Shown: positions 3,642 through 49,152, counted from the first letter of the stretch. The stretch: 64,000 nt of DNA from Escherichia coli (GCF_013122565.1 NZ_CP053258.1), one strand, 5' to 3'. The notes: a model not told the origin generated them from the letters alone. Made by a program: numbers and translations.

Positions 3642-4868
3642 ATGGGAATTAACGAAATCATCATGTACATCATGATGTTCTTTATGCTGATAGCTGCCGT
3701 AGACAGGATCCTGTCGCAGTTCGGCGGTTCTGCTCGTTTCCTCGGTAAGTTCGGTAAAAGTATCGAAGGATCAGGCGGTCAGTTCGAAGAAGGCTTTATG
3801 GCAATGGGCGCTCTGGGTCTGGCGATGGTCGGTATGACCGCGCTGGCACCGGTACTGGCTCACGTACTCGGGCCGGTAATTATCCCGGTTTACGAAATGC
3901 TCGGCGCAAACCCGTCAATGTTCGCCGGAACGCTGCTGGCGTGCGATATGGGCGGCTTCTTCCTCGCCAAAGAGCTGGCGGGCGGCGACGTAGCAGCGTG
4001 GCTATACTCTGGGTTAATTCTCGGGTCGATGATGGGGCCAACGATTGTGTTTTCCATTCCGGTGGCGCTCGGCATTATCGAACCTTCTGACCGTCGTTAT
4101 CTGGCGCTCGGCGTGCTGGCGGGCATTGTGACCATTCCGATTGGTTGTATCGCTGGTGGTCTGGTAGCTATGTACTCCGGTGTTCAGATCAACGGCCAGC
4201 CGGTGGAATTCACTTTCGCCCTGATCCTGATGAACATGATCCCGGTGATCATTGTTGCGATTCTGGTGGCGCTGGGGCTGAAATTCATCCCGGAAAAAAT
4301 GATCAACGGCTTCCAGATCTTCGCCAAATTCCTCGTTGCATTGATCACCCTCGGTCTTGCCGCTGCGGTAGTGAAATTCCTGCTTGGCTGGGAACTGATC
4401 CCCGGTCTGGATCCTATCTTTATGGCCCCTGGCGATAAACCCGGTGAGGTGATGCGCGCCATTGAAGTTATCGGTTCTATCTCCTGCGTGCTGTTAGGGG
4501 CGTATCCGATGGTGCTGCTGCTGACCCGTTGGTTTGAAAAACCGCTGATGAGCGTCGGTAAAGTGCTGAATATGAACAACATCGCGGCAGCCGGCATGGT
4601 GGCAACGCTTGCCAACAACATCCCGATGTTCGGCATGATGAAGCAGATGGATACCCGCGGCAAAGTCATCAACTGCGCCTTCGCCGTTTCCGCTGCTTTC
4701 GCCCTGGGCGACCACTTAGGCTTCGCCGCTGCCAACATGAACGCCATGATTTTCCCGATGATTGTCGGCAAGTTGATCGGCGGCGTAACGGCGATTGGCG
4801 TGGCGATGATGCTGGTGCCAAAAGAAGACGCGACCGCGGCTAAAACCGAAGCGGAGGCACAATCGTGA
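3642..4868 (+). CDS. eutH: Ethanolamine permease EutH
   Basis: 408-aa highly hydrophobic polytopic membrane ORF; eut synteny. Confidence 0.93.
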   Translation: MGINEIIMYIMMFFMLIAAVDRILSQFGGSARFLGKFGKSIEGSGGQFEEGFMAMGALGLAMVGMTALAPVLAHVLGPVIIPVYEMLGANPSMFAGTLLACDMGGFFLAKELAGGDVAAWLYSGLILGSMMGPTIVFSIPVALGIIEPSDRRYLALGVLAGIVTIPIGCIAGGLVAMYSGVQINGQPVEFTFALILMNMIPVIIVAILVALGLKFIPEKMINGFQIFAKFLVALITLGLAAAVVKFLLGWELIPGLDPIFMAPGDKPGEVMRAIEVIGSISCVLLGAYPMVLLLTRWFEKPLMSVGKVLNMNNIAAAGMVATLANNIPMFGMMKQMDTRGKVINCAFAVSAAFALGDHLGFAAANMNAMIFPMIVGKLIGGVTAIGVAMMLVPKEDATAAKTEAEAQS

Positions 4869-6268
4869 ACACTCGCCAGCTACTGAGCGTCGGTATCGAT
4901 ATCGGCACTACCACCACCCAGGTGATCTTCTCCCACCTGGAGCTGGTTAACCGTGCGGCGGTGTCGCAGGTGCCGCGCTACGAATTCATCAAACGCGAAA
5001 TTAGCTGGCAAAGCCCGGTGTTCTTTACCCCTGTCGATAAACAGGGTGGTTTAAAAGAAGCGGAACTGAAAACCTTAATCCTCGAGCAATATCAGGCTGC
5101 GGGCATTGCGCCGGAAAGCGTTGATTCTGGTGCCATCATCATCACCGGTGAAAGCGCGAAAACCCGCAATGCTCGCCCGGCGGTGATGGCGCTCTCCCGG
5201 TCGCTGGGCGATTTTGTCGTCGCCAGCGCCGGGCCGCATCTCGAATCCGTGATCGCCGGTCACGGTGCCGGGGCGCAAACCCTTTCTGAACAACGGCTGT
5301 GTCGGGTCCTGAATATCGATATCGGCGGTGGCACCGCGAACTACGCCCTGTTCGATGCCGGAAAAATCAGCGGTACTGCCTGCCTCAACGTCGGCGGTCG
5401 CCTGCTGGAAACCGACAGCCAGGGGCGCGTGGTTTACGCTCATAAACCGGGGCAGATGATTGTGGATGAGTGCTTCGGCGCAGGCACCGACGCCCGTTCG
5501 CTGACCGGCGCGCAGCTGGTGCAGGTTACCCGGCGGATGGCAGAGCTGATTGTCGAAGTGATTGACGGAACGCTTTCGCCGCTCGCGCAGGCATTAATGC
5601 AAACCGGTTTGCTGCCCGCAGGTGTTACGCCCGAAATCATTACGCTTTCTGGCGGCGTGGGCGAATGTTATCGCCACCAGCCCGCCGACCCGTTCTGTTT
5701 TGCCGATATTGGCCCGCTGCTGGCAACGGCGCTGCATGACCATCCGCGCCTGCGTGAGATGAACGTGCAGTTTCCGGCGCAAACCGTGCGTGCCACGGTG
5801 ATTGGCGCGGGGGCACATACCCTTTCGCTCTCTGGCAGCACAATCTGGCTTGAGGGCGTACAACTGCCGCTGCGCAATTTGCCGGTGGCGATCCCGATTG
5901 ATGAAACGGATCTGGTGGGTGCCTGGCAACAGGCGCTGATTCAGCTGGATCTTGATCCCAAAACTGACGCGTACGTGCTGGCGCTTCCCGCCTCGCTGCC
6001 TGTGCGTTACGCCGCGGTACTGACGGTCATCAACGCGTTGGTCGATTTCGTCGCGCGTTTTCCGAATCCGCATCCCCTGCTGGTGGTGGCCGGGCAGGAC
6101 TTTGGTAAAGCTCTGGGCATGTTGTTGCGCCCACAGCTACAACAACTCCCGTTGGCAGTCATTGACGAAGTGATTGTCCGCGCGGGGGACTATATCGACA
6201 TTGGTACGCCTCTTTTTGGCGGATCGGTTGTGCCGGTGACGGTGAAATCACTCGCATTTCCTTCCTGA
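4865..6268 (+). CDS. eutA: Ethanolamine ammonia-lyase reactivase EutA
   Basis: 467-aa ORF; GTG start overlapping eutH stop (GTGA); eut synteny. Confidence 0.92.
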   Translation: MNTRQLLSVGIDIGTTTTQVIFSHLELVNRAAVSQVPRYEFIKREISWQSPVFFTPVDKQGGLKEAELKTLILEQYQAAGIAPESVDSGAIIITGESAKTRNARPAVMALSRSLGDFVVASAGPHLESVIAGHGAGAQTLSEQRLCRVLNIDIGGGTANYALFDAGKISGTACLNVGGRLLETDSQGRVVYAHKPGQMIVDECFGAGTDARSLTGAQLVQVTRRMAELIVEVIDGTLSPLAQALMQTGLLPAGVTPEIITLSGGVGECYRHQPADPFCFADIGPLLATALHDHPRLREMNVQFPAQTVRATVIGAGAHTLSLSGSTIWLEGVQLPLRNLPVAIPIDETDLVGAWQQALIQLDLDPKTDAYVLALPASLPVRYAAVLTVINALVDFVARFPNPHPLLVVAGQDFGKALGMLLRPQLQQLPLAVIDEVIVRAGDYIDIGTPLFGGSVVPVTVKSLAFPS

Positions 6269-34131: not shown

Positions 34132-34893
34132 TTACCGCCACATCGCGTGTTTATCGCGATAGCAATCGACCCACATCGCCGTCGCGCCACAAACGGCAAC
34201 GGGCATGATGAACAGATTAAGCAGAGGGATCATCGTAAACAGGCTGGTTAAAGCACCAAACTGCATATTGGTGATTTTGCGTGTGCGCAGGGCGGTGCGC
34301 ATCTCTTTAAACGGCACTTTGTGGTTATCGAAGGGGTAATCGCAATACTGGATGGCTAACATCCAGGCGCTAAACAGGAACCACAGTACCGGCGCGACGG
34401 TTTGCCCAATACCAGGGATGAAGTAAAGAATTAGCAATACAATTGCGCGCGGCAGATACCAGGCAAATTTTTGCCATTCGCGTTTCATGATTCGCGGCAC
34501 ATCTTTCATGATACCGAAAATCCCGGTATCTGGCGGTGTAGCGCCAGTCAGTCTTGCTTCCAGTTGTTCAGCCAATAAACCGTTAAACGGAGCGGCAATC
34601 CAGTTAGCAATCGTTGAGAAGAAATAGCCAAACACTAACAGCACAGAGATGACAGCCAGAGGCCACAACAGATAGCTCAGCCATTGTAACCAGTCCGGAA
34701 CATAACTCATGAGAGTCGGGATCCAGACATCGAGTTGCGTAAAGAGCCACCAGAATGCGCCCCCCATCAACAAAATATTGACCAGCAGCGGTAAAATAAC
34801 GAAACGCCGAATCCCTGGTTGCGAGACGAGCTTCCAGCCTTGCGCAAAATAGTAAAAACCGCTGCGTGGGGCAGATGTGAATGATGAAACCAT
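34132..34893 (-). CDS. cysZ: Sulfate transporter CysZ
   Basis: 253-aa membrane ORF upstream of cysK. Confidence 0.93.
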
Positions 34894-35122
34894 AATCAGG
34901 ATGAGCTCCTTTTGACCAATCCCAGGAAAATTCTGCGTATTTTACCGGGTAATTGCGCAATGGACAGTTAGGATATGTTCGAAAAAACAGCAAAAAGCAC
35001 GATTTCATCTATCTTTGTGCTGTGAAAGTTAATAGTGCACTTGCACTTGAGGTAATCGGCAAATACTCTTAGTGAGTAAATGTTTGCCGTGGTGGCAAGG
35101 TGTTAGAACAACAGAGAATATA

Positions 35123-36121
35123 ATGATGCAGGATTTGCGTCTGATATTAATCATTGTTGGCGCGATCGCCATAATCGCTTTACTGGTACATGGTTTCTGG
35201 ACCAGCCGTAAAGAACGATCTTCTATGTTCCGCGATCGGCCATTAAAACGAATGAAGTCAAAACGTGACGACGATTCTTATGACGAGGATGTCGAAGATG
35301 ATGAGGGCGTTGGTGAGGTTCGAGTTCACCGCGTGAATCATGCCCCGGCTAACGCCCAGGAGCATGAGGCTGCTCGTCCGTCGCCGCAACACCAGTACCA
35401 ACCGCCTTATGCGTCTGCCCAGCCCCGTCAACCGGTCCAGCAGCCGCCTGAAGCGCAGGTACCGCCGCAACATGCTCCGCGTCCAGCGCAGCCGGTGCAG
35501 CAACCCGTGCAGCAGCCTGCCTATCAGCCGCAGCCTGAACAGCCGTTGCAGCAGCCAGTTTCGCCACAGGTCGCATCAGCGCCGCAGCCAGTGCATTCAG
35601 CACCGCAATCGGCACAACAGGCTTTCCAGCCTGCAGAACCCGTAGCGGCACCACAGCCTGAGCCTGTAGTGGAACCGGCTCCAGTTATGGATAAACCGAA
35701 GCGCAAAGAAGCGGTGATTATCATGAACGTCGCGGCGCATCACGGTAGCGAGCTAAACGGTGAACTGCTTCTTAACAGCATTCAACAAGCGGGCTTCATT
35801 TTTGGCGATATGAATATTTACCATCGTCATCTTAGCCCGGATGGCAGCGGCCCGGCGTTATTTAGCCTGGCGAATATGGTGAAACCGGGAACCTTTGATC
35901 CTGAAATGAAGGATTTCACTACTCCGGGTGTCACTATCTTTATGCAGGTACCGTCTTACGGTGACGAGCTGCAGAACTTCAAGCTGATGCTGCAATCTGC
36001 GCAGCATATTGCCGATGAAGTGGGCGGTGTAGTGCTTGACGATCAGCGCCGTATGATGACTCCGCAGAAATTGCGCGAGTACCAGGACATCATCCGCGAA
36101 GTCAAAGACGCCAACGCCTGA
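35123..36121 (+). CDS. zipA: Cell division protein ZipA
   Basis: Trimmed to ATG 35123 ([18 protein letters not shown]...); N-terminal TM anchor, P/Q-rich linker, C-terminal FtsZ-binding domain. Confidence 0.93.
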
Positions 36122-36151
36122 TACACTTAAGGCAAATTAACTCCTCTTCGA

Positions 36152-36175
36152 ACCCCCGCTTGTCGGGGGTTTTTA
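36152..36175 (+). terminator. zipA-distal hairpin
   Basis: acccccgcttgtcgggggttttt. Confidence 0.6.
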
Positions 36176-36182
36176 GCATTGA

Positions 36183-38207
<2,025 letters not shown>

Positions 38208-38208
38208 G

Positions 38209-38427
38209 ATGGAAAAAGAGCAGCTGATTGAAATAGCCAATACGATAATGCCGTTTGGCAAATACAAAGGGCGTCGCTTAATCGACCTGCCGGAGGAGTA
38301 TCTGCTGTGGTTTGCCCGCAAAGATGAGTTCCCGGCAGGGAAGCTCGGTGAGCTAATGCAAATCACGCTGCTGATTAAAACCGAGGGGCTGACGCAACTG
38401 GTCCAGCCCCTGAAGCGTCCGCTTTAA
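38209..38427 (+). CDS. ypeB: Small protein YpeB (DUF3820)
   Basis: Trimmed to ATG 38209 (MEKEQLIEIANTIMPFGKYKGRR...), 72 aa, immediately after ligA stop. Confidence 0.8.
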   Translation: MEKEQLIEIANTIMPFGKYKGRRLIDLPEEYLLWFARKDEFPAGKLGELMQITLLIKTEGLTQLVQPLKRPL

Positions 38428-39422
38428 GCTTTATCGGCGCTGCTTTCCTGCTGCGCCTGTAACTGTTCGGTCTGGCGTTTGTATCGACGCGCCAGCACCG
38501 CACAGACCATCAATTGGATCTGATGGAAAATCATCAGGGGCAGCACCATCATACCGATCACCGATGTGGGGAACAGAATGTTTGCCATCGGGATGCCATT
38601 TGCCAGACTCTTTTTCGAACCACAAAAGACGATAGTAATTTCATCTGCTTTATTGAAGCCCAGTCGGCGTGCCATAAAGACGTTAACTACAATCACGATA
38701 GCCAGAAGAACGCAGCTGGCCACCACGATAAACAGCAATGATCCCCAGCCAACTTTATGCCAGATACCATTAACGACGGCTTCGCTGAACGCTGTATAAA
38801 CCACCAACAGAATGGACGTCTGGTCAGTTTTCGCAATCCATTTTTTATTGCGCGACACCCAGTCACCAATCCACGGCCGGGAAAGATGCCCTAACACAAA
38901 CGGCAGCAACAGTTGCAGCATAATTTTACCGACCTGCTCAAGGCTGCCCCCTGCACCGTGAACATTCATCACCAGGCCAACCAACAATGGTGAAAGGAAA
39001 ATCCCCAGCAGGCTGGATGCCGACGCAGAACAAACCGCCGCCGCGACGTTACCGCCCGCCATTGACGTGAAGGCGATTGCAGACTGCACGGTCGCGGGGA
39101 GAATGCACAAGTAGAGAAAACCGGAGTAGAGCATCGGGTCGACATTTACCGGTTTCCACCAGGCAAACAGCACGCCCAGAATCGGAAACAGCACGAAGGT
39201 GCTGCACATTACCCACAAATGCAGTCGCCAGTGACCACCGCCAGCAATAATCGCCTCACGCGACAACTTCGCGCCGTGCATAAAGAACAGCAGGGCAATC
39301 GCTGCGGTGGTCAGATTTTCAAAGAAGGGGACGAAATCGCCTCTGGCCGGAAAGAAAGAGGCCAACAACACCACCGTGATCAGGGTTAAGGTGAAAGGAT
39401 CGAGGATACGAAAAAGTTTCAT
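38424..39422 (-). CDS. yfeH: Bile acid:sodium symporter (BASS) family transporter YfeH
   Basis: 332-aa polytopic membrane ORF. Confidence 0.9.
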   Translation of the reverse strand: MKLFRILDPFTLTLITVVLLASFFPARGDFVPFFENLTTAAIALLFFMHGAKLSREAIIAGGGHWRLHLWVMCSTFVLFPILGVLFAWWKPVNVDPMLYSGFLYLCILPATVQSAIAFTSMAGGNVAAAVCSASASSLLGIFLSPLLVGLVMNVHGAGGSLEQVGKIMLQLLLPFVLGHLSRPWIGDWVSRNKKWIAKTDQTSILLVVYTAFSEAVVNGIWHKVGWGSLLFIVVASCVLLAIVIVVNVFMARRLGFNKADEITIVFCGSKKSLANGIPMANILFPTSVIGMMVLPLMIFHQIQLMVCAVLARRYKRQTEQLQAQQESSADKA

Positions 39423-39939
39423 AAAGACTCCAGATGATCGATGCTTTCATTGTGCGTTGTTCTGATTGATAAATAAAACTGAATTGCTTATCAATTTGTG
39501 CGCGAGGAGTGTGAGTGAGTTGCTCGCTCGCTTCGACTGGTTGGCAGAGCGGGGGAGGATATCCCGGATGAGACAAATAAGACGTTCGACAAGAGAATCA
39601 GGTGACTACAGAAAAAATCACAGGATGTTATTACTGCTGATGTTCATGTCGGTTTTCGCGTTATCAGAACTGGTTTTAGAACTGCTATTTAATCGATAAT
39701 GCCATTCTGCAGGAAAGCTTTACCTACTTTATTATTTGCGGTGTGGTAAAACCTGGTCACCAGAGGCAGGTTTAATACCAGACGCTGTCTTTTATCAGAT
39801 ATCCCATGTAAATAATAAATGCAATGAATATTAATTCATTATGTATTTATTTTGTGATTGTTTGGTGTTACTAGTTTGTTGGACAAATAACAACTCTAAC
39901 TAATACATAAACCTTGCATAGTGACAGAGTATCGATCTG

Positions 39940-39977
39940 AATGTTTTCAACATTGATATCAAATTGCAATTGATATC
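39940..39977. promoter_or_regulatory. Candidate operator upstream of the NupG-like transporter: inverted repeat ATGTT-ttc-AACAT followed by two TTGATATC palindromes spaced 17 bp
   Basis: Read directly: gaATGTTttcAACATTGATATCaaattgcaaTTGATATCcg, 75-110 bp upstream of the 40051 start. Confidence 0.35.
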
Positions 39978-40050
39978 CGTGGTAAAAAGTATTGGTAAAT
40001 TTGATGAATTTCCGGATATTTAAAGGGGCGGCTCAAAGACGAAGGGGAAG

Positions 40051-41307
40051 ATGGTGAATCTAAAACTACAGTTAAAAGTTCTTTCATTTCTGCAATTCTT
40101 TTTGTGGGGAAGTTGGCTCAACACATTCGGTTCTTATATGTTTATCACGCTGCGTTTTAAGGGCGAAGATATAGGCGCAGTCTACAGTACACTGGGTATC
40201 GCAGCATTAATAACATCAACGTTATTTGGTATCGTGGCCGATAAATGGATTAGTGCTAAATGGATATATGCCGCTTGTCATTTATTTGGCGCGATAACAT
40301 TATTTATCGCAGCATCGGTTACCACGCCTTCGGCAATGTTCATTGTCATTTTACTTAACTCTCTTGTGTATATGCCAACACTCGGTTTGAGTAATACAAT
40401 TTCCTATTACCGCCTACAAACAGCGGGGATGGATATTGTGACAGAATTTCCGCCAATCCGTATCTGGGGCACGATTGGATTTATTGTCGCAATGTGGGCG
40501 GTTAGCCTGGCTGGTTTTGAATTAAGTCATATGCAATTATATATCGGTGCGGCGGCTTCATTAGGCTTGAGCCTGTTCACGTTGACTTTACCAACTGTAC
40601 CAGTGGCGAAATCTAACCAGGCGCAAGGAATGATAGATGTTCTCGGATTGCGTGCATTTACACTGTTTAAAAACAGCAAAATGGCGATTTTCTTTATCTT
40701 TGCCATGCTGCTCGGGGCAGAGTTACAAATTACCGGGATGTTTGGTAATACATTTCTCCACAGCTTTGAGAGCGTTCCAGAGTTTACCAATAGTTTTGTT
40801 GTTACCCATGCTTCTATTCTGTTATCAATTTCTCAGATATCCGAAGTCTGTTTCATTCTTGCCATTCCTTTTTTCCTGAAAAAATACGGTATCAAAAATG
40901 TCATGCTGATGAGCATGGTGGCCTGGATGCTGCGTTTTGGTTTATTCGCTTATGGCGATCCTTCATTCGGTGGTACCATTCTGTTAATTCTTTCGATGAT
41001 TGTTTATGGCTGTGCTTTTGACTTCTTCAATATATCTGGCTCGGTATTTGTTGAACAAGAAGTTGATCCATCGATTCGTAACAGCGCTCAGGGCGTTTTC
41101 CTGATGATGGCCAATGGTTTTGGTTGTATTCTGGGCGGTTTTATCAGTGGTAAAGTCGTCGATTATTTAACAACGGATGGCAATCCACAGTGGTCAACCA
41201 TTTGGCTGGTATTTGCCGGATATTCACTGGTTCTGGCTCTCGCATTTATGGTGTTGTTTAAATATAAACACAACGGTAACCCGACAACGTCCGGTCATTT
41301 CGCCTGA
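40051..41307 (+). CDS. Nucleoside:H+ symporter, NHS family (NupG/XapB paralog)
   Basis: 418-aa 12-TM-like ORF; near-collinear similarity to recalled NupG and to XapB encoded 2 kb downstream (e.g. LQFFLWGSWL, FPPIRIWGTIGFI, GCAFDFFNISGSVFVEQEV). AT-rich codon usage. Confidence 0.85.
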   Translation: MVNLKLQLKVLSFLQFFLWGSWLNTFGSYMFITLRFKGEDIGAVYSTLGIAALITSTLFGIVADKWISAKWIYAACHLFGAITLFIAASVTTPSAMFIVILLNSLVYMPTLGLSNTISYYRLQTAGMDIVTEFPPIRIWGTIGFIVAMWAVSLAGFELSHMQLYIGAAASLGLSLFTLTLPTVPVAKSNQAQGMIDVLGLRAFTLFKNSKMAIFFIFAMLLGAELQITGMFGNTFLHSFESVPEFTNSFVVTHASILLSISQISEVCFILAIPFFLKKYGIKNVMLMSMVAWMLRFGLFAYGDPSFGGTILLILSMIVYGCAFDFFNISGSVFVEQEVDPSIRNSAQGVFLMMANGFGCILGGFISGKVVDYLTTDGNPQWSTIWLVFAGYSLVLALAFMVLFKYKHNGNPTTSGHFA

Positions 41308-41361
41308 TACGGAGTTTATCAAAATTAATAATGTTTTATAGGATTCGCAAAAGAGGAAGTT

Positions 41362-42273
41362 ATGGCAAATCAATTGTATAACCAGTGTCGGGTTTATTGT
41401 GCACCCTGGCGATTAGATGCTTTAAATTTAAATGATATCATTGATCAATGGATTGACGAGGGGCTGTTGCCGCCCCTGATCCATACTTTTCTTCCATATC
41501 GCGATGATGCCGGTGCCTCCAGTGAAGAAGAGATTTTTGTTAACGATGTCGCGAATATGGATAACAGTGTTGGGGTTATCGGTTATTTCGATGGTGGAAC
41601 CTATGATTCCGGTTATGCATGGGCTTTAGGGATGCCTGTTCACCTGGTAACGACAGACTTTCTTATATGGGCAGCGGGGAATTCTTCAGAGTTTTATCCT
41701 ATAAGTAAGCTGATGAATTATGTGGCAAAAGTGGTTTCTGTGTCAGATTCCGATACCAGTATCAGCAATTATCGTGAACAAACCGACGATATCATCAAGC
41801 GTGCGTTGCAAATTTTTCAACAAAATTTAATCGCCGACTTCGGCACGACGATTAATCCAGCAGTACCGGTTACTCCATTGCCGATTGAGTATGACTACTA
41901 TATTGATCCTAACTTTATGTATACCGAACCCTCTCGGGACTTACTGGTGAAGATCAAAGATGCGATCATTAGTGCAGGTAAGACTTTCATCGTTGGCGAC
42001 AACATGAATGATATTGCGACTGATATTGATAACTTAAGAAAATCCAGACAGGCCATCTTTTATTCCGATACCTTTGAGCCGAATGTTGACACCGGCATTA
42101 TGAATGGTATTGCCTATGCATTAGGACAGCAATCGATTATTTATTGTAGCAAGCAACAAAAATATCAATCTGCGCTCGCGACAGATTATTTAAATTTAAT
42201 GATTACCTGGTCGTCAACGGTGGCGCATTCATTTGCGGAACTTGAAACATTGATTGGTAACACAGAAAAATAA
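41362..42273 (+). CDS. Hypothetical protein with two tandem nucleoside 2-deoxyribosyltransferase-like repeats
   Basis: 303-aa ORF with RBS agaggaag; internal repeat ([DS]G..[YI]A[WY]ALG at ~aa 80-95 and ~aa 255-270) resembling the NDT/DNPH1 D-x-G-..-E-x-G-Y-A-x-A-x-G-K-P-V motif. Fold assignment is inference. Confidence 0.6.
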   Translation: MANQLYNQCRVYCAPWRLDALNLNDIIDQWIDEGLLPPLIHTFLPYRDDAGASSEEEIFVNDVANMDNSVGVIGYFDGGTYDSGYAWALGMPVHLVTTDFLIWAAGNSSEFYPISKLMNYVAKVVSVSDSDTSISNYREQTDDIIKRALQIFQQNLIADFGTTINPAVPVTPLPIEYDYYIDPNFMYTEPSRDLLVKIKDAIISAGKTFIVGDNMNDIATDIDNLRKSRQAIFYSDTFEPNVDTGIMNGIAYALGQQSIIYCSKQQKYQSALATDYLNLMITWSSTVAHSFAELETLIGNTEK

Positions 42274-42284
42274 TAGTTAATTTT

Positions 42285-42330
42285 ACTGATTATCAGGTGA
42301 GTGATTGCCTGATAATCAGCTTTTTGTTAG
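42285..42330 (+). terminator. Rho-independent terminator after the 303-aa gene
   Basis: Perfect 12-bp inverted repeat CTGATTATCAGG...CCTGATAATCAG followed by ctttttg. Confidence 0.65.
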
Positions 42331-42501
42331 CCACCAAAGAAAAATATACTGCCGTTATATTTCTCTGCCGGGGAACGATATGATCGATTTCAAAATTATA
42401 TTGAATATCTCTGGAAAATGTATTGGTCACTCGCGACTTTTTCTCGCTATAAAAAAATGTGACTCAGATCTAACGCATAATGCTTATTACAAGGACTTGC
42501 C

Positions 42502-43335
42502 ATGACCCAATCTCATTTTTCACAAAACCCGTGGTATTGCGCAGATATCATTCGTCGTCATAAACCAGACTTTACCCCACGCGTTGCGTTTATTTTGGGT
42601 TCGGGACTGGGAGCGCTGGCTGAACAAATAGAAGACGCAGTTGCCATTTCTTATAGCGATTTGCCGGGGTTTCCGGTGAGCACCGTACACGGCCATGCAG
42701 GAGAGTTGGTCCTCGGCGTGCTTTCTGGTGTGCCTGTAGCCTGCATGAAAGGTCGCGGTCATTTTTATGAGGGCCGGGGAATGACTGTCATGACTGATGC
42801 TATTCGCACGTTCAAGTTGCTGGGCTGTGAATTGTTGTTCTGCACTAACGCTGCAGGTTCGCTTCGCCCGGAAGTAGGGGCGGGTAGTCTGGTTGCGCTG
42901 AAAGATCACATTAATACGATGCCAGGCACACCGATGACAGGCCTTAATGATGAGCGTTTTGGTGAACGTTTTTTCTCATTAGCGAATGCTTACGATGCTG
43001 ATTACCGCGCCGTTTTACAAACCGTCGCGCATGAAGAAGGTTTTCCGCTGACAGAAGGGGTTTTTGTTTCTTATCCGGGGCCGAACTTCGAAACGGCGGC
43101 AGAAATTCGCATGATGCAGCTGTTTGGTGGCGACGTAGTAGGTATGTCTGTAGTGCCTGAAGTGATTAGCGCACGTCATTGCGAAATGAAAGTCGTTGCC
43201 GTGTCAGCAATAACCAACATGGCGGAAGGCTTAAGCGATGTGAAATTGTCGCATGCCCAAACCCTGGCTGCAGCAGAGTTATCACGACAAAACTTTATTA
43301 ATTTGATTTGCGGATTCTTACGCAAAATCGCCTGA
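42502..43335 (+). CDS. xapA: Xanthosine phosphorylase (purine nucleoside phosphorylase II) XapA
   Basis: 277-aa PNP-family ORF; xapAB-xapR synteny. Confidence 0.93.
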   Translation: MTQSHFSQNPWYCADIIRRHKPDFTPRVAFILGSGLGALAEQIEDAVAISYSDLPGFPVSTVHGHAGELVLGVLSGVPVACMKGRGHFYEGRGMTVMTDAIRTFKLLGCELLFCTNAAGSLRPEVGAGSLVALKDHINTMPGTPMTGLNDERFGERFFSLANAYDADYRAVLQTVAHEEGFPLTEGVFVSYPGPNFETAAEIRMMQLFGGDVVGMSVVPEVISARHCEMKVVAVSAITNMAEGLSDVKLSHAQTLAAAELSRQNFINLICGFLRKIA

Positions 43336-43392
43336 AAACAATAAAAATGGCCTCGCGGATGGGGCCATCTCTCTGCGATAAGGAAACGAAAA

Positions 43393-44640
43393 ATGAATAT
43401 CGCAACGCGTTTAAAGGTAATGTCTTTCTTACAATATTTTATCTGGGGGAGTTGGTTAGTTACCCTCGGATCTTACATGATAAACACCTTACATTTTACC
43501 GGGGCTGATGTCGGTATGGCATACAGTTCTAAAGGCATTGCGGCCATTATTATGCCAGCCATTATGGGCATTATTGCCGATAAATGGTTACGGGCTGAAC
43601 GTACCTATATGCTGTGTCACTTAATTTGTGCCGGGGTGCTTTTTTATGCCGCCTCCGTAACTGAACCGAATATGATGTTCTGGGTGATGTTGCTTAACGC
43701 GATGGCTTTCATGCCCACGATTGCGTTATCCAACAGTGTTTCCTATTCGTGCCTGGCGCAGGCCGGATTAGACCCAGTCACCAGTTTTCCGCCAATCCGT
43801 GTTTATGGCACCGTGGGATTTATTGTCGCAATGTGGCTGGTGAGTTTATTGCATCTGGAGTTAAGTAGTGTGCAGTTGTATATCGCTTCTGGAGCATCTT
43901 TAGTGTTAGCGATCTATGCATTAACATTACCGAAAATTCCAGTGGCGGAACATAAAGCCAGTACGACGCTTTCCAGTAAATTAGGCCTGGATGCGTTTGT
44001 GTTATTTAAAAATCCGCGTATGGCGATTTTCTTTTTATTTGCTATGTTATTAGGTGCGGTACTGCAAATTACTAACGTTTTTGGTAATCCTTTCCTGCAT
44101 GACTTTGCCCGCAATCTTGAGTTTGCTGATAGCTTCGTGGTGAAATATCCATCCATTTTGCTCTCGGTTTCACAAATGGCGGAAGTCGGCTTCATTCTTA
44201 CCATTCCATTCTTCCTGAAGCGTTTTGGCATCAAAACCGTCATGTTGATGAGTATGGTAGCGTGGACGTTACGCTTTGGCTTCTTTGCCTTTGGCGACCC
44301 ATCGGCAGGTGGCTTTGTATTATTGTTGTTGTCGATGATTGTGTATGGCTGCGCGTTCGACTTTTTCAATATCTCCGGTTCAGTGTTTGTCGAGCAAGAA
44401 GTGGACTCCAGGATCCGCGCCAGCGCTCAGGGTTTATTTATGACTATGGTCAATGGCGTTGGGGCGTGGATTGGTTCTCTTCTGAGTGGCATGGCAGTTG
44501 ACTATTTCACGGTTGATGGCGTGAAAGACTGGCAAACCATCTGGCTAGTATTTGCTGCGTATGCACTGGCCTTAGCGGTGATTTTTGCCCTGTTCTTCCG
44601 TTATAAGCATGAACCTGATAAATGGCGCAGAAATCATTGA
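43393..44640 (+). CDS. xapB: Xanthosine permease XapB (NHS family)
   Basis: 415-aa membrane ORF downstream of xapA. Confidence 0.93.
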   Translation: MNIATRLKVMSFLQYFIWGSWLVTLGSYMINTLHFTGADVGMAYSSKGIAAIIMPAIMGIIADKWLRAERTYMLCHLICAGVLFYAASVTEPNMMFWVMLLNAMAFMPTIALSNSVSYSCLAQAGLDPVTSFPPIRVYGTVGFIVAMWLVSLLHLELSSVQLYIASGASLVLAIYALTLPKIPVAEHKASTTLSSKLGLDAFVLFKNPRMAIFFLFAMLLGAVLQITNVFGNPFLHDFARNLEFADSFVVKYPSILLSVSQMAEVGFILTIPFFLKRFGIKTVMLMSMVAWTLRFGFFAFGDPSAGGFVLLLLSMIVYGCAFDFFNISGSVFVEQEVDSRIRASAQGLFMTMVNGVGAWIGSLLSGMAVDYFTVDGVKDWQTIWLVFAAYALALAVIFALFFRYKHEPDKWRRNH

Positions 44641-44716
44641 CTCACTGATGTAAACAGGGTTTTCCTTGATTGCAATGTGCTAAGTTTGCAGCCTTACCCA
44701 TACCGCGTGGAGCGCA

Positions 44717-45607
44717 ATGATTATGGAAGGTACGCATCGTATTGATCTCAAGTTATTGCGCTATTTTCTTGCGGTCGCAGAAGAACTTCACTTTGGGCGG
44801 GCCGCTGCGCGGCTGAATATGTCGCAACCGCCATTAAGTATTCATATTAAAGATCTGGAGCAACAGTTGGGCACGTTGCTGTTCGTTCGTCATTCGCGCA
44901 GTGTGGCGCTCACTCATGCGGGGAAAATTTTACTGGAAGAGTCACGTCGTCTGCTGGCTAATGCCAGTCAGGCGTTGGCACGAGTAGAACAGATCGGTCG
45001 TGGTGAGGCAGGGCGCATTGAGCTGGGCGTGGTGGGAACCGCAATGTGGGGGCGAATGCGTCCGGTAATGCGGCGGTTTTTGAAAGAGTGCCCTAATGTT
45101 CATGTCTCATTTCGTGAAAAATCACCAGGGATGCAAATGGCATTGCTCGAGCGGCGGGAGCTGGACGCGGGTATCTGGCGGATGGCAATTGAACCCACGA
45201 CGGGATTTACCAGTCTGCGATTACACGAATCTTCGTTTTTGGTGGCGATACCGGAAGATCATCATCTGGCTTGCGAAAACGCTATCCCGTTAATGGCATT
45301 ACGCAATGAATACTTTGTGACGCTGCCATCGGTCCATTCCGACTGGGCGTTTTTACAGCGTGTCTGTCAGCAGGCAGGGTTTTCACCGATGATCGTTCGG
45401 GAGGCCGTAGAACCGCAAACCGTACTGGCGATGATCAGTATGGGGCTGGGTGTGACATTAATGGCAGATAGCTATGCCCAAATGAGCTGGCCGGGTGTGG
45501 TATTTCGTCCACTCGAGGAACGTATTCCAGCAGATTTGTATATTGTTTATGAACAGCAACAGGCAACACCAGCGCTGGAGAGATTAGTTAATGCTTTGAT
45601 AGCATGA
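44717..45607 (+). CDS. xapR: LysR-family regulator XapR
   Basis: 296-aa ORF with N-terminal LysR HTH (LKLLRYFLAVAEELHFGRAAARLNMSQPPLS); exact start uncertain. Confidence 0.85.
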   Translation: MIMEGTHRIDLKLLRYFLAVAEELHFGRAAARLNMSQPPLSIHIKDLEQQLGTLLFVRHSRSVALTHAGKILLEESRRLLANASQALARVEQIGRGEAGRIELGVVGTAMWGRMRPVMRRFLKECPNVHVSFREKSPGMQMALLERRELDAGIWRMAIEPTTGFTSLRLHESSFLVAIPEDHHLACENAIPLMALRNEYFVTLPSVHSDWAFLQRVCQQAGFSPMIVREAVEPQTVLAMISMGLGVTLMADSYAQMSWPGVVFRPLEERIPADLYIVYEQQQATPALERLVNALIA

Positions 45608-45626
45608 AAGAAGATATCGCAGATAG

Positions 45627-45654
45627 CAAAAAAGCGCCTTTAGGGCGCTTTTTT
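45627..45654. terminator. Bidirectional terminator (xapR on +, tRNA operon on -)
   Basis: aaaaaagcgcctttagggcgctttttt. Confidence 0.7.
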
Positions 45655-45658
45655 GCAT

Positions 45659-45734
45659 TGGTGGGTCGTGCAGGATTCGAACCTGCGACCAATTGATTAA
45701 AAGTCAACTGCTCTACCAACTGAGCTAACGACCC
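45659..45734 (-). tRNA. lysV: tRNA-Lys (anticodon UUU)
   Basis: Reverse complement folds as tRNA: GGGTCGTTAGCTCAGTTGG... anticodon loop CTTTTAA ...CCA. Confidence 0.95.
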
Positions 45735-45738
45735 GAAG

Positions 45739-45814
45739 TGGTGGGTGATGACGGGATCGAACCGCCGACCCCCTCCTTGTAAGGGAGGTGCTCTCCCAGC
45801 TGAGCTAATCACCC
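45739..45814 (-). tRNA. valY: tRNA-Val (anticodon UAC)
   Basis: Reverse complement GGGTGATTAGCTCAGCTGGGAGAGCACCTCCCTTACAAGGAGG...CCA; copy 1 of 3 identical genes. Confidence 0.95.
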
Positions 45815-45860
45815 ACTTCGGTACTTCACATTTTTACAAGAAATTTAGCTGGCGAGAAAG

Positions 45861-45936
45861 TGGTGGGTGATGACGGGATCGAACCGCCGACCCCCTCCTT
45901 GTAAGGGAGGTGCTCTCCCAGCTGAGCTAATCACCC
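45861..45936 (-). tRNA. valX: tRNA-Val (anticodon UAC)
   Basis: Identical copy 2. Confidence 0.95.
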
Positions 45937-45980
45937 ACTTCTCAATTTCTTGCTACACGGCGGAGACTACATAAAGTAGT

Positions 45981-46056
45981 TGGTGGGTGATGACGGGATC
46001 GAACCGCCGACCCCCTCCTTGTAAGGGAGGTGCTCTCCCAGCTGAGCTAATCACCC
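45981..46056 (-). tRNA. valU: tRNA-Val (anticodon UAC)
   Basis: Identical copy 3 (promoter-proximal on minus strand). Confidence 0.95.
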
Positions 46057-46314
46057 CCGCTGTGTGGAGTCGCATTATAGGGAGAGTTCAAAATGAGTCA
46101 ACGCATTTTCTAAAGAAATTGTTCGTTCGTCGTAAATTTAAGCAAGATGATCGCAAAACAGACCGTGTTGCGCAATTTGTCAACGAAAACAATAATGCGT
46201 AAGGTTGCAACCCGAACTACATTGAGGAATCAGGCGGGAGTGATAGAATATCGCCCACTCAATTTTTCCAGGATTTGCCGGTTGTCGGCATCTTTCTAAA
46301 CGTAAGGCCATTTC

Positions 46315-47730
46315 ATGAAAATCAAAACTCGCTTCGCGCCAAGCCCAACAGGCTATCTGCACGTTGGCGGCGCGCGTACTGCTCTTTACTCCTGGCTTTT
46401 TGCACGTAATCACGGCGGTGAGTTCGTGCTGCGTATTGAAGACACCGATCTTGAGCGTTCCACGCCGGAAGCTATCGAAGCCATTATGGATGGCATGAAC
46501 TGGCTGAGCCTGGAGTGGGATGAAGGTCCGTACTTCCAGACCAAACGTTTTGATCGCTACAACGCGGTGATCGATCAGATGCTGGAAGAGGGCACAGCTT
46601 ATAAATGCTATTGCTCTAAAGAGCGCCTGGAAGCGCTGCGCGAAGAGCAAATGGCGAAAGGTGAGAAGCCGCGTTATGACGGTCGCTGCCGCCACAGTCA
46701 TGAGCATCACGCTGATGATGAGCCGTGTGTCGTACGTTTTGCTAACCCGCAGGAAGGTTCTGTTGTTTTTGACGATCAGATCCGTGGTCCGATCGAGTTC
46801 AGCAACCAGGAACTGGACGATCTTATTATCCGCCGTACCGATGGTTCCCCAACCTATAACTTCTGTGTGGTTGTCGATGACTGGGATATGGAAATCACCC
46901 ACGTTATCCGTGGCGAAGACCATATCAACAACACGCCACGCCAGATCAACATTCTTAAGGCCCTGAAAGCGCCAGTGCCGGTTTACGCGCACGTTTCTAT
47001 GATCAACGGCGATGACGGTAAAAAACTGTCCAAACGTCACGGGGCGGTCAGCGTAATGCAGTATCGTGATGACGGTTATTTGCCAGAAGCACTGCTGAAC
47101 TATCTGGTGCGTCTGGGCTGGTCCCACGGCGATCAGGAAATCTTCACTCGTGAAGAGATGATCAAATACTTCACCCTGAATGCCGTCAGCAAATCTGCCA
47201 GTGCGTTCAACACCGACAAGCTGCTGTGGCTGAACCATCACTACATTAATGCGCTGCCGCCGGAGTATGTTGCTACTCACTTACAGTGGCACATTGAGCA
47301 GGAAAATATCGATACCCGTAACGGCCCGCAGCTGGCTGAGCTGGTGAAACTGCTGGGCGAACGCTGCAAGACGCTGAAAGAGATGGCACAGAGCTGCCGT
47401 TATTTCTACGAAGATTTTGCTGAGTTCGATGCCGACGCCGCGAAAAAACATCTGCGCCCAGTAGCGCGTCAGCCGCTGGAAGTGGTTCGTGACAAACTGA
47501 CTGCGATTACTGACTGGACCGCTGAAAACGTTCATCACGCTATTCAGGCGACGGCGGATGAGCTGGAAGTGGGTATGGGTAAAGTTGGTATGCCGCTGCG
47601 TGTCGCCGTAACCGGTGCGGGGCAGTCTCCGGCACTGGATGTTACCGTTCACGCAATCGGTAAGACCCGCAGTATCGAGCGTATCAACAAAGCTCTGGCT
47701 TTTATTGCGGAACGTGAAAATCAGCAGTAA
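46315..47730 (+). CDS. gltX: Glutamyl-tRNA synthetase GltX
   Basis: 471-aa class I aaRS ORF; HIGH-type (HVGGART) and KMSKS-type (KLSKR) motifs seen. Confidence 0.97.
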
Positions 47731-47748
47731 TTAGCGCATAAAAGATAA

Positions 47749-47778
47749 ACGGCAGGAGAAATACCCCTGCCGTTTTTT
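47749..47778. terminator. Bidirectional terminator between convergent gltX and yfeD
   Basis: aacggcaggagaaatacccctgccgtttttt. Confidence 0.7.
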
Positions 47779-47780
47779 AT

Positions 47781-48173
47781 TCATGCTGATTCATCTATGT
47801 CGAGACGAGCAAGGAAATTACGAATTCCTTCGCGTGACAAAAATTGCGCAACTTTTTCCTGCTCACTGTGAGTCATGTTGTCTATTGCGCTGATGATTTG
47901 CCGATAAGCAGGAGTGCGAATCCCCGGTGCGTATTCGGCAAGGGGTTCTTCGGCTTCCAGAAGCATCGGTGTGTTATGGAAGGCTGGCGTGTTCTGAATA
48001 AACTCGCAAACTTGCGTATCGACCAGAATAAGTCTGGCACGACCGCCTTTCACGCCGGGAAATTTTTCCGTTTTCCAGCCTTTTTCTCTGATCCAACGGT
48101 TAACAGTTTGTTTAGCCACACCGAGGCATTCAGCCAGTTCTTCGGTGGTCATTTTATTGCGTAATCTTTTCAT
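47781..48173 (-). CDS. yfeD: DUF1323 HTH protein YfeD
   Basis: 130-aa ORF; paralog of the adjacent yfeC (shared ...EELAECLGVAKQTVNRWIREKGW... core). Confidence 0.85.
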   Translation of the reverse strand: MKRLRNKMTTEELAECLGVAKQTVNRWIREKGWKTEKFPGVKGGRARLILVDTQVCEFIQNTPAFHNTPMLLEAEEPLAEYAPGIRTPAYRQIISAIDNMTHSEQEKVAQFLSREGIRNFLARLDIDESA

Positions 48174-48174
48174 A

Positions 48175-48519
48175 TTATTTGCTATCGCGAATCCCTAAGC
48201 GTTGTAACAATCCGATAATCCCTTCCCGCAGAAGCAAGGATGTAAACTGTTTTTGTTCAACTGGCGTCATCTCTTTCGCCAGTGTCACCAGCAATACTTC
48301 AAGCGGCGCATCACCAGAAAGGGCAGGCGTTTCTCCCTGACTTTCCGGACGTTCAGCATTGCGAATATATTCACGAACCTGTTCATTGACGTGAACCAGT
48401 CGGGCTTTGCCACCCTGGACGCCAGGTTTTGGTGACGTTGTCCAGCCTTCCTTGCGTACCCATTTATTAATGGTCTGGCGGCTATAGCCGGTCAGTCTGG
48501 CAAGTTCATCTGGCGTCAT
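48175..48519 (-). CDS. yfeC: DUF1323 HTH protein YfeC
   Basis: ORF 48175-48534; start placed at second Met (MTPDELARL...), upstream ATG at 48534 also possible. Confidence 0.8.
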   Translation of the reverse strand: MTPDELARLTGYSRQTINKWVRKEGWTTSPKPGVQGGKARLVHVNEQVREYIRNAERPESQGETPALSGDAPLEVLLVTLAKEMTPVEQKQFTSLLLREGIIGLLQRLGIRDSK

Positions 48520-48754
48520 CCTCTCCTTGAACATAACAATTCCCTGAATGTATGTGGGTCTATTAGTAGTTCATTTTATAACACCACTTTACAGGAAACC
48601 GTGACATGAATAACTACTGAATGCGAGCGGTTTTCCAAAATTGTTCATTTGCCTGATTTTTCAGCGATTGAAACTACACGTTGCAATTTGCCGTTGACAC
48701 ATTCGGACGGAATTCATATGATGCCGCCCGTCAACTCGACAAGCTTTACGTGAC

Positions 48755-48830
<76 letters not shown>

Positions 48831-48869
48831 AATTTTGCACCCAGCAAATTTGGTACGTAAACGCATCGT

Positions 48870-48945
<76 letters not shown>

Positions 48946-48952
48946 AATTTCA

Positions 48953-48980
48953 AACCCTCGCTGCAAAGCGGGGGTTTTTT
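48953..48980 (+). terminator. Terminator of the tRNA-Ala operon
   Basis: aaaccctcgctgcaaagcgggggtttttt. Confidence 0.65.
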
Positions 48981-49152
48981 GTCTCTGCTTTTTGCCGCTT
49001 TTGTAATACAGTCTATGTTCGGGTTAGCGCCGCCTGGTGAAAGCATCATTGGATGAAAAATCGGCAACAGGCTGGCCCCTGTTTGCTTCGCGATGCGAAT
49101 AAACTTATTATTTGTGTGCCTGAAAACCCCGATCAGTGAGAGTAGTGTACTC

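Follow-up and report, generated by a model that had tools for sequence, protein, structure and literature searches.

Does this locus carry an NHS-family transporter gene additional to nupG and xapB, or a nupG gene out of place, and if it is an additional gene, what would it be used for? NHS transporters are the enterobacterial uptake route for nucleosides and for nucleoside drugs such as gemcitabine (PMC11241209). We addressed the question in a 64,000-nucleotide stretch of DNA from Escherichia coli (NZ_CP053258.1), referred to below as the window, where the open reading frame of interest occupies positions 40051-41307 of the + strand. A preliminary description of the window had proposed that this frame encodes an extra NupG-like permease and that the NDT-like gene directly behind it suggests a dedicated substrate.

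Assignment of the open reading frame to the NHS family

The open reading frame is real. Translation from the ATG at 40051 gives 418 aa and translation from the GTG at 40054 gives 417 aa; the GTG aligns with the NupG start MNLKLQ and is the start chosen by PGAP in LHM10-1 and IAI39. A ribosome-binding site (AAGGGGAAG) is present at 40042-40050 (+). The product matched the TIGR00889 profile, “nucleoside permease”, with 633 bits against a cut-off of 446, from residue 3 to residue 412 (profile positions 2-411 of 418), and PF03825 is precomputed for every close homologue. Pairwise alignment to K-12 NupG was gapless over 411 aa, with 74% identity, compared to 61% identity with the XapB encoded in the window (43393-44640, +); XapB and NupG are themselves 60% identical. 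The earlier proposals that the 418-aa product is collinear with the NHS transporters and nearer to NupG than to XapB are thus borne out, and with xapB confirmed at its position the two NHS genes do lie within 4.6 kb.

As judged from its sequence, then, we assign the protein with high confidence as a full-length NHS nucleoside permease, and it very probably operates by proton-coupled nucleoside symport, the MFS mechanism of NupG. NupG (NHS, TC 2.A.1.10), for which a crystal structure is available (PMC8042404), is collinear with the permease and of the same length. YegT, the third NHS protein of K-12, belongs to the same family and its base-contact positions are also variable (PMC8042404); at a published identity to NupG of approximately 27% (PMC8042404), it is far more distant than the permease. 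The permease is labelled “nucleoside permease” in RefSeq and nothing more, and our literature search found no paper on this paralogue or on its cassette with the NDT-like gene. It is best classed as a subfamily, so far uncharacterised, within a familiar family of transporters and not as a new kind of system.

A permease additional to NupG and XapB

One possible explanation for the resemblance to NupG over XapB is that the permease is the strain's only nupG, shifted to a position beside the xap genes. The window stops short of the canonical nupG region, which leaves room for this idea. Of 5,426 complete E. coli genomes, 15 have the permease together with its NDT-like neighbor, and a sensitive DNA search found three NHS places (permease, nupG, and xapB) in all 15. 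In LHM10-1, the closest carrier (99.6% nucleotide identity in the permease gene), nupG lies between mltC and speC, the canonical site that it also occupies in K-12, whereas the permease gene of the window is located between yfeH and xapA.

The phylogeny is equally at odds with relocation. Thirty database proteins, from Escherichia, Citrobacter, Pseudocitrobacter, and metagenomes, were 84-100% identical to the window permease and 70-73% identical to NupG. The remaining homologues were either no more than 75% identical to the window permease and 73-100% identical to NupG, or XapB-like at ~60%; to no NupG was identity above 75%. In a neighbor-joining tree the permease clade (bootstrap 100/100) was sister to the NupG group (192/200), and XapB formed a third group (100/100). 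Grouping in the tree together with at least 80% identity would identify a NupG orthologue; the permease, at 70-73% and in its own clade, is not one. Nor is it a XapB orthologue as defined by tree grouping and xapA-xapB-xapR synteny, as it is 61% identical to XapB and the true xapB lies downstream. Finally, the homologues in Citrobacter and Pseudocitrobacter are found at unrelated sites, always paired with the NDT-like gene. Relocation of the only nupG is therefore extremely improbable, and the view that the canonical nupG lies elsewhere and the permease is additional is upheld. We conclude with high confidence that the permease is additional to nupG and xapB, and for the window strain we infer this from its closest relatives.

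The permease gene is conserved as a pair with an NDT-like gene

The NDT-like open reading frame (41362-42273, +; 303 aa) begins 54 nt after the permease gene with no terminator between them, and a strong intrinsic terminator with a 15-bp stem and a T run (42286-42329, +) ends the two-gene operon ahead of the xapA promoter. The two genes were adjacent in every context seen, at five chromosomal sites. The pair is flanked by yfeN and xapA in Escherichia, by a LysR/MFS gene pair on one side and an adenine deaminase gene on the other in Citrobacter, and by purT and eda in Pseudocitrobacter. On the metagenomic contig L023 it is beside an EF-P-like gene and on a second one, L025, it occupies the distal end of a xap locus, where it and xapR are convergent. 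In every genus the GC content of the cassette was 41-45%, against 49-54% in the flanks. The type strain of E. albertii also has the cassette.

A relative at 91-93% identity (L004) has the order yfeH-yfeR-yfeN-permease-NDT-xapA. By gene order, the cassette of this relative has simply been added to the K-12 arrangement, with yfeN on one side and xapA on the other, and the absence of yfeR from IAI39 and the window is read as a secondary loss.

Estimates of dN/dS for the permease were 0.04 between the window and IAI39 and 0.045 between the window and Citrobacter, with synonymous sites saturated in the comparison between genera; values of 0.04-0.05 are comparable to those of xapA and xapB. By such estimates both genes of the cassette are under strong purifying selection. 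That the permease and the NDT-like gene are conserved as a pair can be stated with high confidence.

In Citrobacter (L006-L009) the cassette is followed by the adenine-deaminase-like gene, which hints that it may serve in the salvage of nucleosides or bases.

The partner gene encodes a tandem NDT-fold protein

In a set of 1.84 billion proteins the NDT-like family, a very small one, had 31 representatives. No NCBIfam family matched the protein, and a search of the PDB with the single sequence gave nothing meaningful; a family profile was needed. With that profile, solved NDTs were matched at E = 2.7e-15, and the N-terminal Tyr, the DGxxxDxGxxxE motif, and the C-terminal NxM were aligned. PF05014 matched 24 of the 25 aligned members, the exception at E <= 0.001 being the window copy, whose Pfam hits were weak (E = 0.006 and 0.024). 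The AlphaFold (AF2) model of the IAI39 protein has a pLDDT of 94, and its top matches among solved structures were 2'-deoxyribosyltransferases, with target-normalised TM-scores of 0.6-0.77. A scan of contigs with peptide patterns of the NDT-like protein, which were too strict, returned only two near-identical loci, and the wider distribution was taken from protein searches.

Residues invariant in the family include D62, D82, E88, and M286. The N-terminal half carries the Tyr, Asp, and Glu, while the C-terminal half has Gln/Asn instead of Glu and supplies the NxM. As aligned, the protein thus resembles a pseudo-dimer built in a single chain, with only one of its halves equipped with the catalytic Glu and hence one active site. 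LlNDT, PTD, CtNDT, and the D. psychrophila NDT share its fold and its three motifs (Tyr, DGxxxDxGxxxE, and NxM); unlike these enzymes it is ~310 aa long (309-310 aa in relatives of the window copy), with two NDT-like halves per chain.

The features by which we would recognize an NDT (the fold, the nucleophile Glu in DxGxxxE, and the Tyr and NxM) are all found in the relatives. The window copy, on the other hand, has lost the nucleophile through an 18-bp in-frame deletion (junction 41613/41614) between two GGTTxTGCATGGG repeats. The peptide lost in this way, GCAWEV, contains Glu88, a residue that does not vary in the family and is aligned to the nucleophile of NDTs. The 18 bp are retained in LHM10-1 and IAI39, and the deletion was absent from all carriers compared (LHM10-1, IAI39, Citrobacter, and Pseudocitrobacter).

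A metagenomic member of the family at 49% identity (L019/L020) is flanked on one side by a gene for a GntR regulator and on the other by a gene of the cytidine/dCMP-deaminase family (389 aa), another hint of salvage.

The permease clade differs from NupG at one base-contact position

The uridine site of NupG comprises R136, T140, F143, Q225, N228, Q261, E264, Y318, and F322; the protonation site is D323 (PMC8042404), which is within a GxxxD motif in TM10 (PMC11979927). The window permease and its whole clade have kept the ribose contacts R136, T140, and E264, the aromatic residues F143 and F322, and Q225, Q261, and Y318, and the GxxxD motif with D323 is present in the permease as YGCAFD. Position 228 is the exception: it is Gly in 29 of the 30 clade members and Ser in one, and it is Asn in all NupG and XapB sequences examined. 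Five of the six residues of the base-contact set (Q225, N228, Q261, Y318, F143, and F322) are therefore kept in the clade while N228 is replaced. In NupG, the N228A substitution abolishes uridine binding (PMC8042404), and N228 was invariable across the NupG/XapB cluster in a survey of 146 NHS proteins (PMC11241209). A further 28 positions are fixed in the clade and differ from NupG.

It is plausible that Asn228 to Gly confers a base preference unlike those of NupG and XapB. However, substrates are poorly predicted from one residue of the pocket: NupG and XapB differ in specificity although their pockets are identical (PMC8042404, PMC11241209). Our confidence in any particular substrate is low.

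It could also be argued that the permease is a redundant, broad-specificity transporter of the NupG type, that Gly228 is without effect, and that the link to the NDT-like gene reflects nothing but co-transfer. Such a reading has in its favor that nine of the ten residues known to form the pocket or serve coupling in NupG are retained, and that specificity, as NupG and XapB themselves show, is determined outside the pocket. We consider this unlikely in view of the N228A phenotype and of the distribution of the residue, which is Gly/Ser throughout the clade and fixed as Asn in both sister groups; in addition, the pair has been kept at five independent sites despite saturated dS between genera, with both of its genes under the purifying selection estimated above. 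As to the earlier suggestion of a dedicated substrate, made from the NDT-like gene directly after the permease, the linkage holds at the level of the family, where the pair occupies five sites and the base-contact change is fixed; the dedicated substrate is a putative one.

The cassette promoter resembles that of xapA

Upstream alignment revealed that the permease and xapA promoters have two blocks in common, with the same spacing and at the same distance from the -10 element. Block 1 is the upstream ATYGATATC...TTGA and block 2, AAAnnGTATTGGT, overlaps the -35 region. In the window the two blocks make up a XapR-type promoter box, ATTGATATCAAATTGCAATTGATATCCGTGGTAAAAAGTATTGGT (39952-39996, +), located 5' of the permease gene. 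A -10-like hexamer TATTTA (40017-40022, +) follows 20 nt past the box and aligns with the TATAAA of xapA promoters. The blocks agree in position with the published architecture of the xapAB promoter, where one XapR site lies over the -35 region and a second lies further upstream, although we found no exact XapR operator sequence in that report (PMC7205307).

To score the box we used a 45-nt pattern with 31 specified bases, for which xapA promoters alone were the source; the XapR-type box of the window's own xapA promoter (42383-42427, +) served as the reference and scores 31/31 by construction. The region upstream of the permease gene scored 26/31 in the window and IAI39, 27/31 in Citrobacter, 25-26/31 in Pseudocitrobacter, and 24/31 on contig L023. 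Shuffled versions of the 17-kb Citrobacter and Pseudocitrobacter loci reached a maximum of 21-22/31, and the region around nupG gave 16-19/31. In each box-bearing locus the box upstream of the permease was the top-scoring site, aside from xapA's own promoter. An xapA-like box is thus present at four of the five cassette sites; at the fifth, L025, the score was 16/31 and there is no box, and the pair is instead directly beside xapR.

These data support, as a well-founded deduction from promoter sequence, the placing of the permease operon under XapR-type control, and our confidence in this regulatory reading is moderate. Another possibility is that the promoter is not controlled by XapR and that its likeness to xapA stems from shared DNA ancestry or from a different LysR-type regulator. 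The boxless L025 context speaks for this. It is nevertheless the less likely account: the two XapR sites of the published promoter (PMC7205307) fall where the conserved blocks are, these blocks stay equally spaced in genera that have reached saturation at synonymous sites, two independent insertions adjoin xapABR, and XapR orthologues at 85-87% identity to that of the window exist in Citrobacter, Klebsiella, and Salmonella.

Other searches of the upstream region gave the following results. Positions 39300-42600 had no match in Rfam, with E values of up to 1 admitted, and therefore no known riboswitch or leader. In a scan for consensus sigma-70 promoters, promoter-like sites were no commoner than in shuffled sequence and none fell at the proposed promoter; a miss at the -10 element would be expected because the promoter would be activator-dependent. 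The best half-site match to CRP upstream of the permease, 7/10, was not convincing. The nupG promoter, for its part, is of the CRP/CytR/DeoR type. The LysR gene beside the Citrobacter cassette was considered as a XapR and rejected at 27% identity.

The permease differs from NupG in forming its own clade, in carrying Gly228 and the 28 other fixed differences, in its location away from mltC-speC, in having an xapA-like promoter in place of a convincing CRP site, and in its predicted co-transcription with the NDT-like gene. With XapB it has in common the NHS sub-cluster, the island, and the promoter blocks and spacing of xapA. To our knowledge, xapAB is the only known member of the XapR regulon, and the permease operon is a possible second one.

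We also observed a second, weaker XapR-like box, with a GTATTGG core and a score of 21-22/31, in the region between the divergent genes yfeN and xapA, on the side nearer to yfeN. It occurs in K-12 (L003, 6990-7034, +), Salmonella (L016/L017, 7477-7433 and 7324-7280, -), and IAI39 (L001, ~5134-5170, -), and in the window the core is mutated to GTATTAG. The YfeN channel may, on the basis of this box, be part of the XapR regulon.

A proposed role for the cassette

A dedicated nucleoside route is the best reading of the cassette because of the NDT pairing, the fixed Asn228-to-Gly change, and the xapA-like promoter. In the explanation that we propose, the permease would be an intact and functional nucleoside:H+ symporter, representing a third NHS subfamily alongside NupG and XapB. 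Its gene would have come in with that of the NDT-like enzyme, as an operon of low GC content that entered a minority version of the Escherichia xanthosine island at the yfeN-xapA interval. XapR or a XapR-type regulator, and hence xanthosine or a related nucleoside, would turn on the operon, and Gly228 would give the permease a base specificity unlike that of NupG or XapB. The imported nucleoside, most plausibly a 2'-deoxynucleoside, would then provide the NDT-like enzyme with a donor, to be cleaved or to have its base exchanged. We regard this explanation, a third symporter subfamily with an NDT partner forming a dedicated and probably XapR-induced nucleoside route, as probable on balance.

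It could be speculated further that the cassette constitutes a XapR-controlled “deoxynucleoside branch” of the xanthosine regulon, in which a Gly228 importer would be joined to phosphate-free exchange or removal of the base by the tandem NDT. This more specific proposal is doubtful. If it were true, the substrate would be one that NupG and XapB handle poorly, for example a purine 2'-deoxynucleoside or a base-modified nucleoside, and the cassette would represent a salvage route that has not been described in the Enterobacteriaceae.

A natural third subfamily that is altered at an “invariable” uridine-binding residue offers a ready-made test of specificity in the NupG/XapB cluster, and its association with a fused NDT of an unusual kind and, as it seems, with XapR is likewise a ready-made experiment. 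We see the permease as a useful lead for specialists and not as a surprise.

The cassette lies in a divergent xap island and is partly decayed in the window

Gene order in the window is of the E. coli type, zipA-ligA-ypeB-yfeH followed further on by xapA-xapB-xapR-tRNAs-gltX, and its flanks, 34356-39485 on one side and 45615-48986 on the other, match K-12 at 97.7% identity. Between them is a divergent “xap island” (39486-45614) that contains a yfeN remnant, the permease and NDT-like genes, xapA (xanthosine phosphorylase, 42502-43335, +), xapB (xanthosine permease), and xapR (LysR-type activator, 44717-45607, +). Inside the island nucleotide identity to K-12 drops to 77.5% for xapAB and 72.5% for xapR, and the cassette is absent from K-12. 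The window XapR, a non-K-12 allele, is 96-98% identical at the amino acid level to a minority E. coli and E. albertii type but only 79-81% identical to the common, K-12-type E. coli XapR. By these identities the xap island of E. coli exists as two deeply divergent alleles. This is consistent with the repeated transfer of xapR together with xapA documented by Price et al. 2008 (PMC2395238).

The yfeN gene, encoding a nucleoside channel of the Tsx/OmpK family, is intact in IAI39 (4262-5029, -). Comparison with that gene by blastn showed that a 642-bp internal deletion has left only the two ends in the window (39671-39797, -, ends approximate), with the junction at 39740/39742 (IAI39 4331 and 4974). 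The yfeR gene, present in K-12 and in L004, is absent from the window.

The cassette is partly decayed in the window while the permease is intact. In view of the disabled NDT-like enzyme and the deletion in yfeN, this lineage may be in the course of losing the module. A stronger version of this view is that the whole cassette is decaying in the window strain and that the permease is out of use. The rarity of the gene (15 of 5,426 genomes) would suit such a view, as would the yfeN deletion and the loss of the nucleophile Glu through an 18-bp slip that no other compared carrier has. We find it improbable, as the permease is full length, its sole private change (A245T) falls at a position where the commonest residue accounts for only 67% of the family, and the promoter box, -10 element, ribosome-binding site, and terminator are all intact. 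Moreover, the deletion in the NDT-like gene is in frame and looks recent (dS between the window and LHM10-1 is 0.03). Under the explanation that we favor, the permease of the window strain would act alone, its partner enzyme being without the nucleophile, and would feed the ordinary XapA and Deo routes.

Two minor observations concern the surroundings of the island. None of the 5,426 complete E. coli genomes has a ligA more than 98.5% identical to that of the window (36192-38207), and the window lineage is therefore not closely represented among them. A 52-aa gene without a Pfam hit was found between xapB and xapR in C. enshiensis (L014, 9790-9948), Salmonella (L016, 9791-9949), and a metagenomic contig (L025, 4228-4386); in the window the gap between xapB and xapR is 76 nt and the gene is absent.
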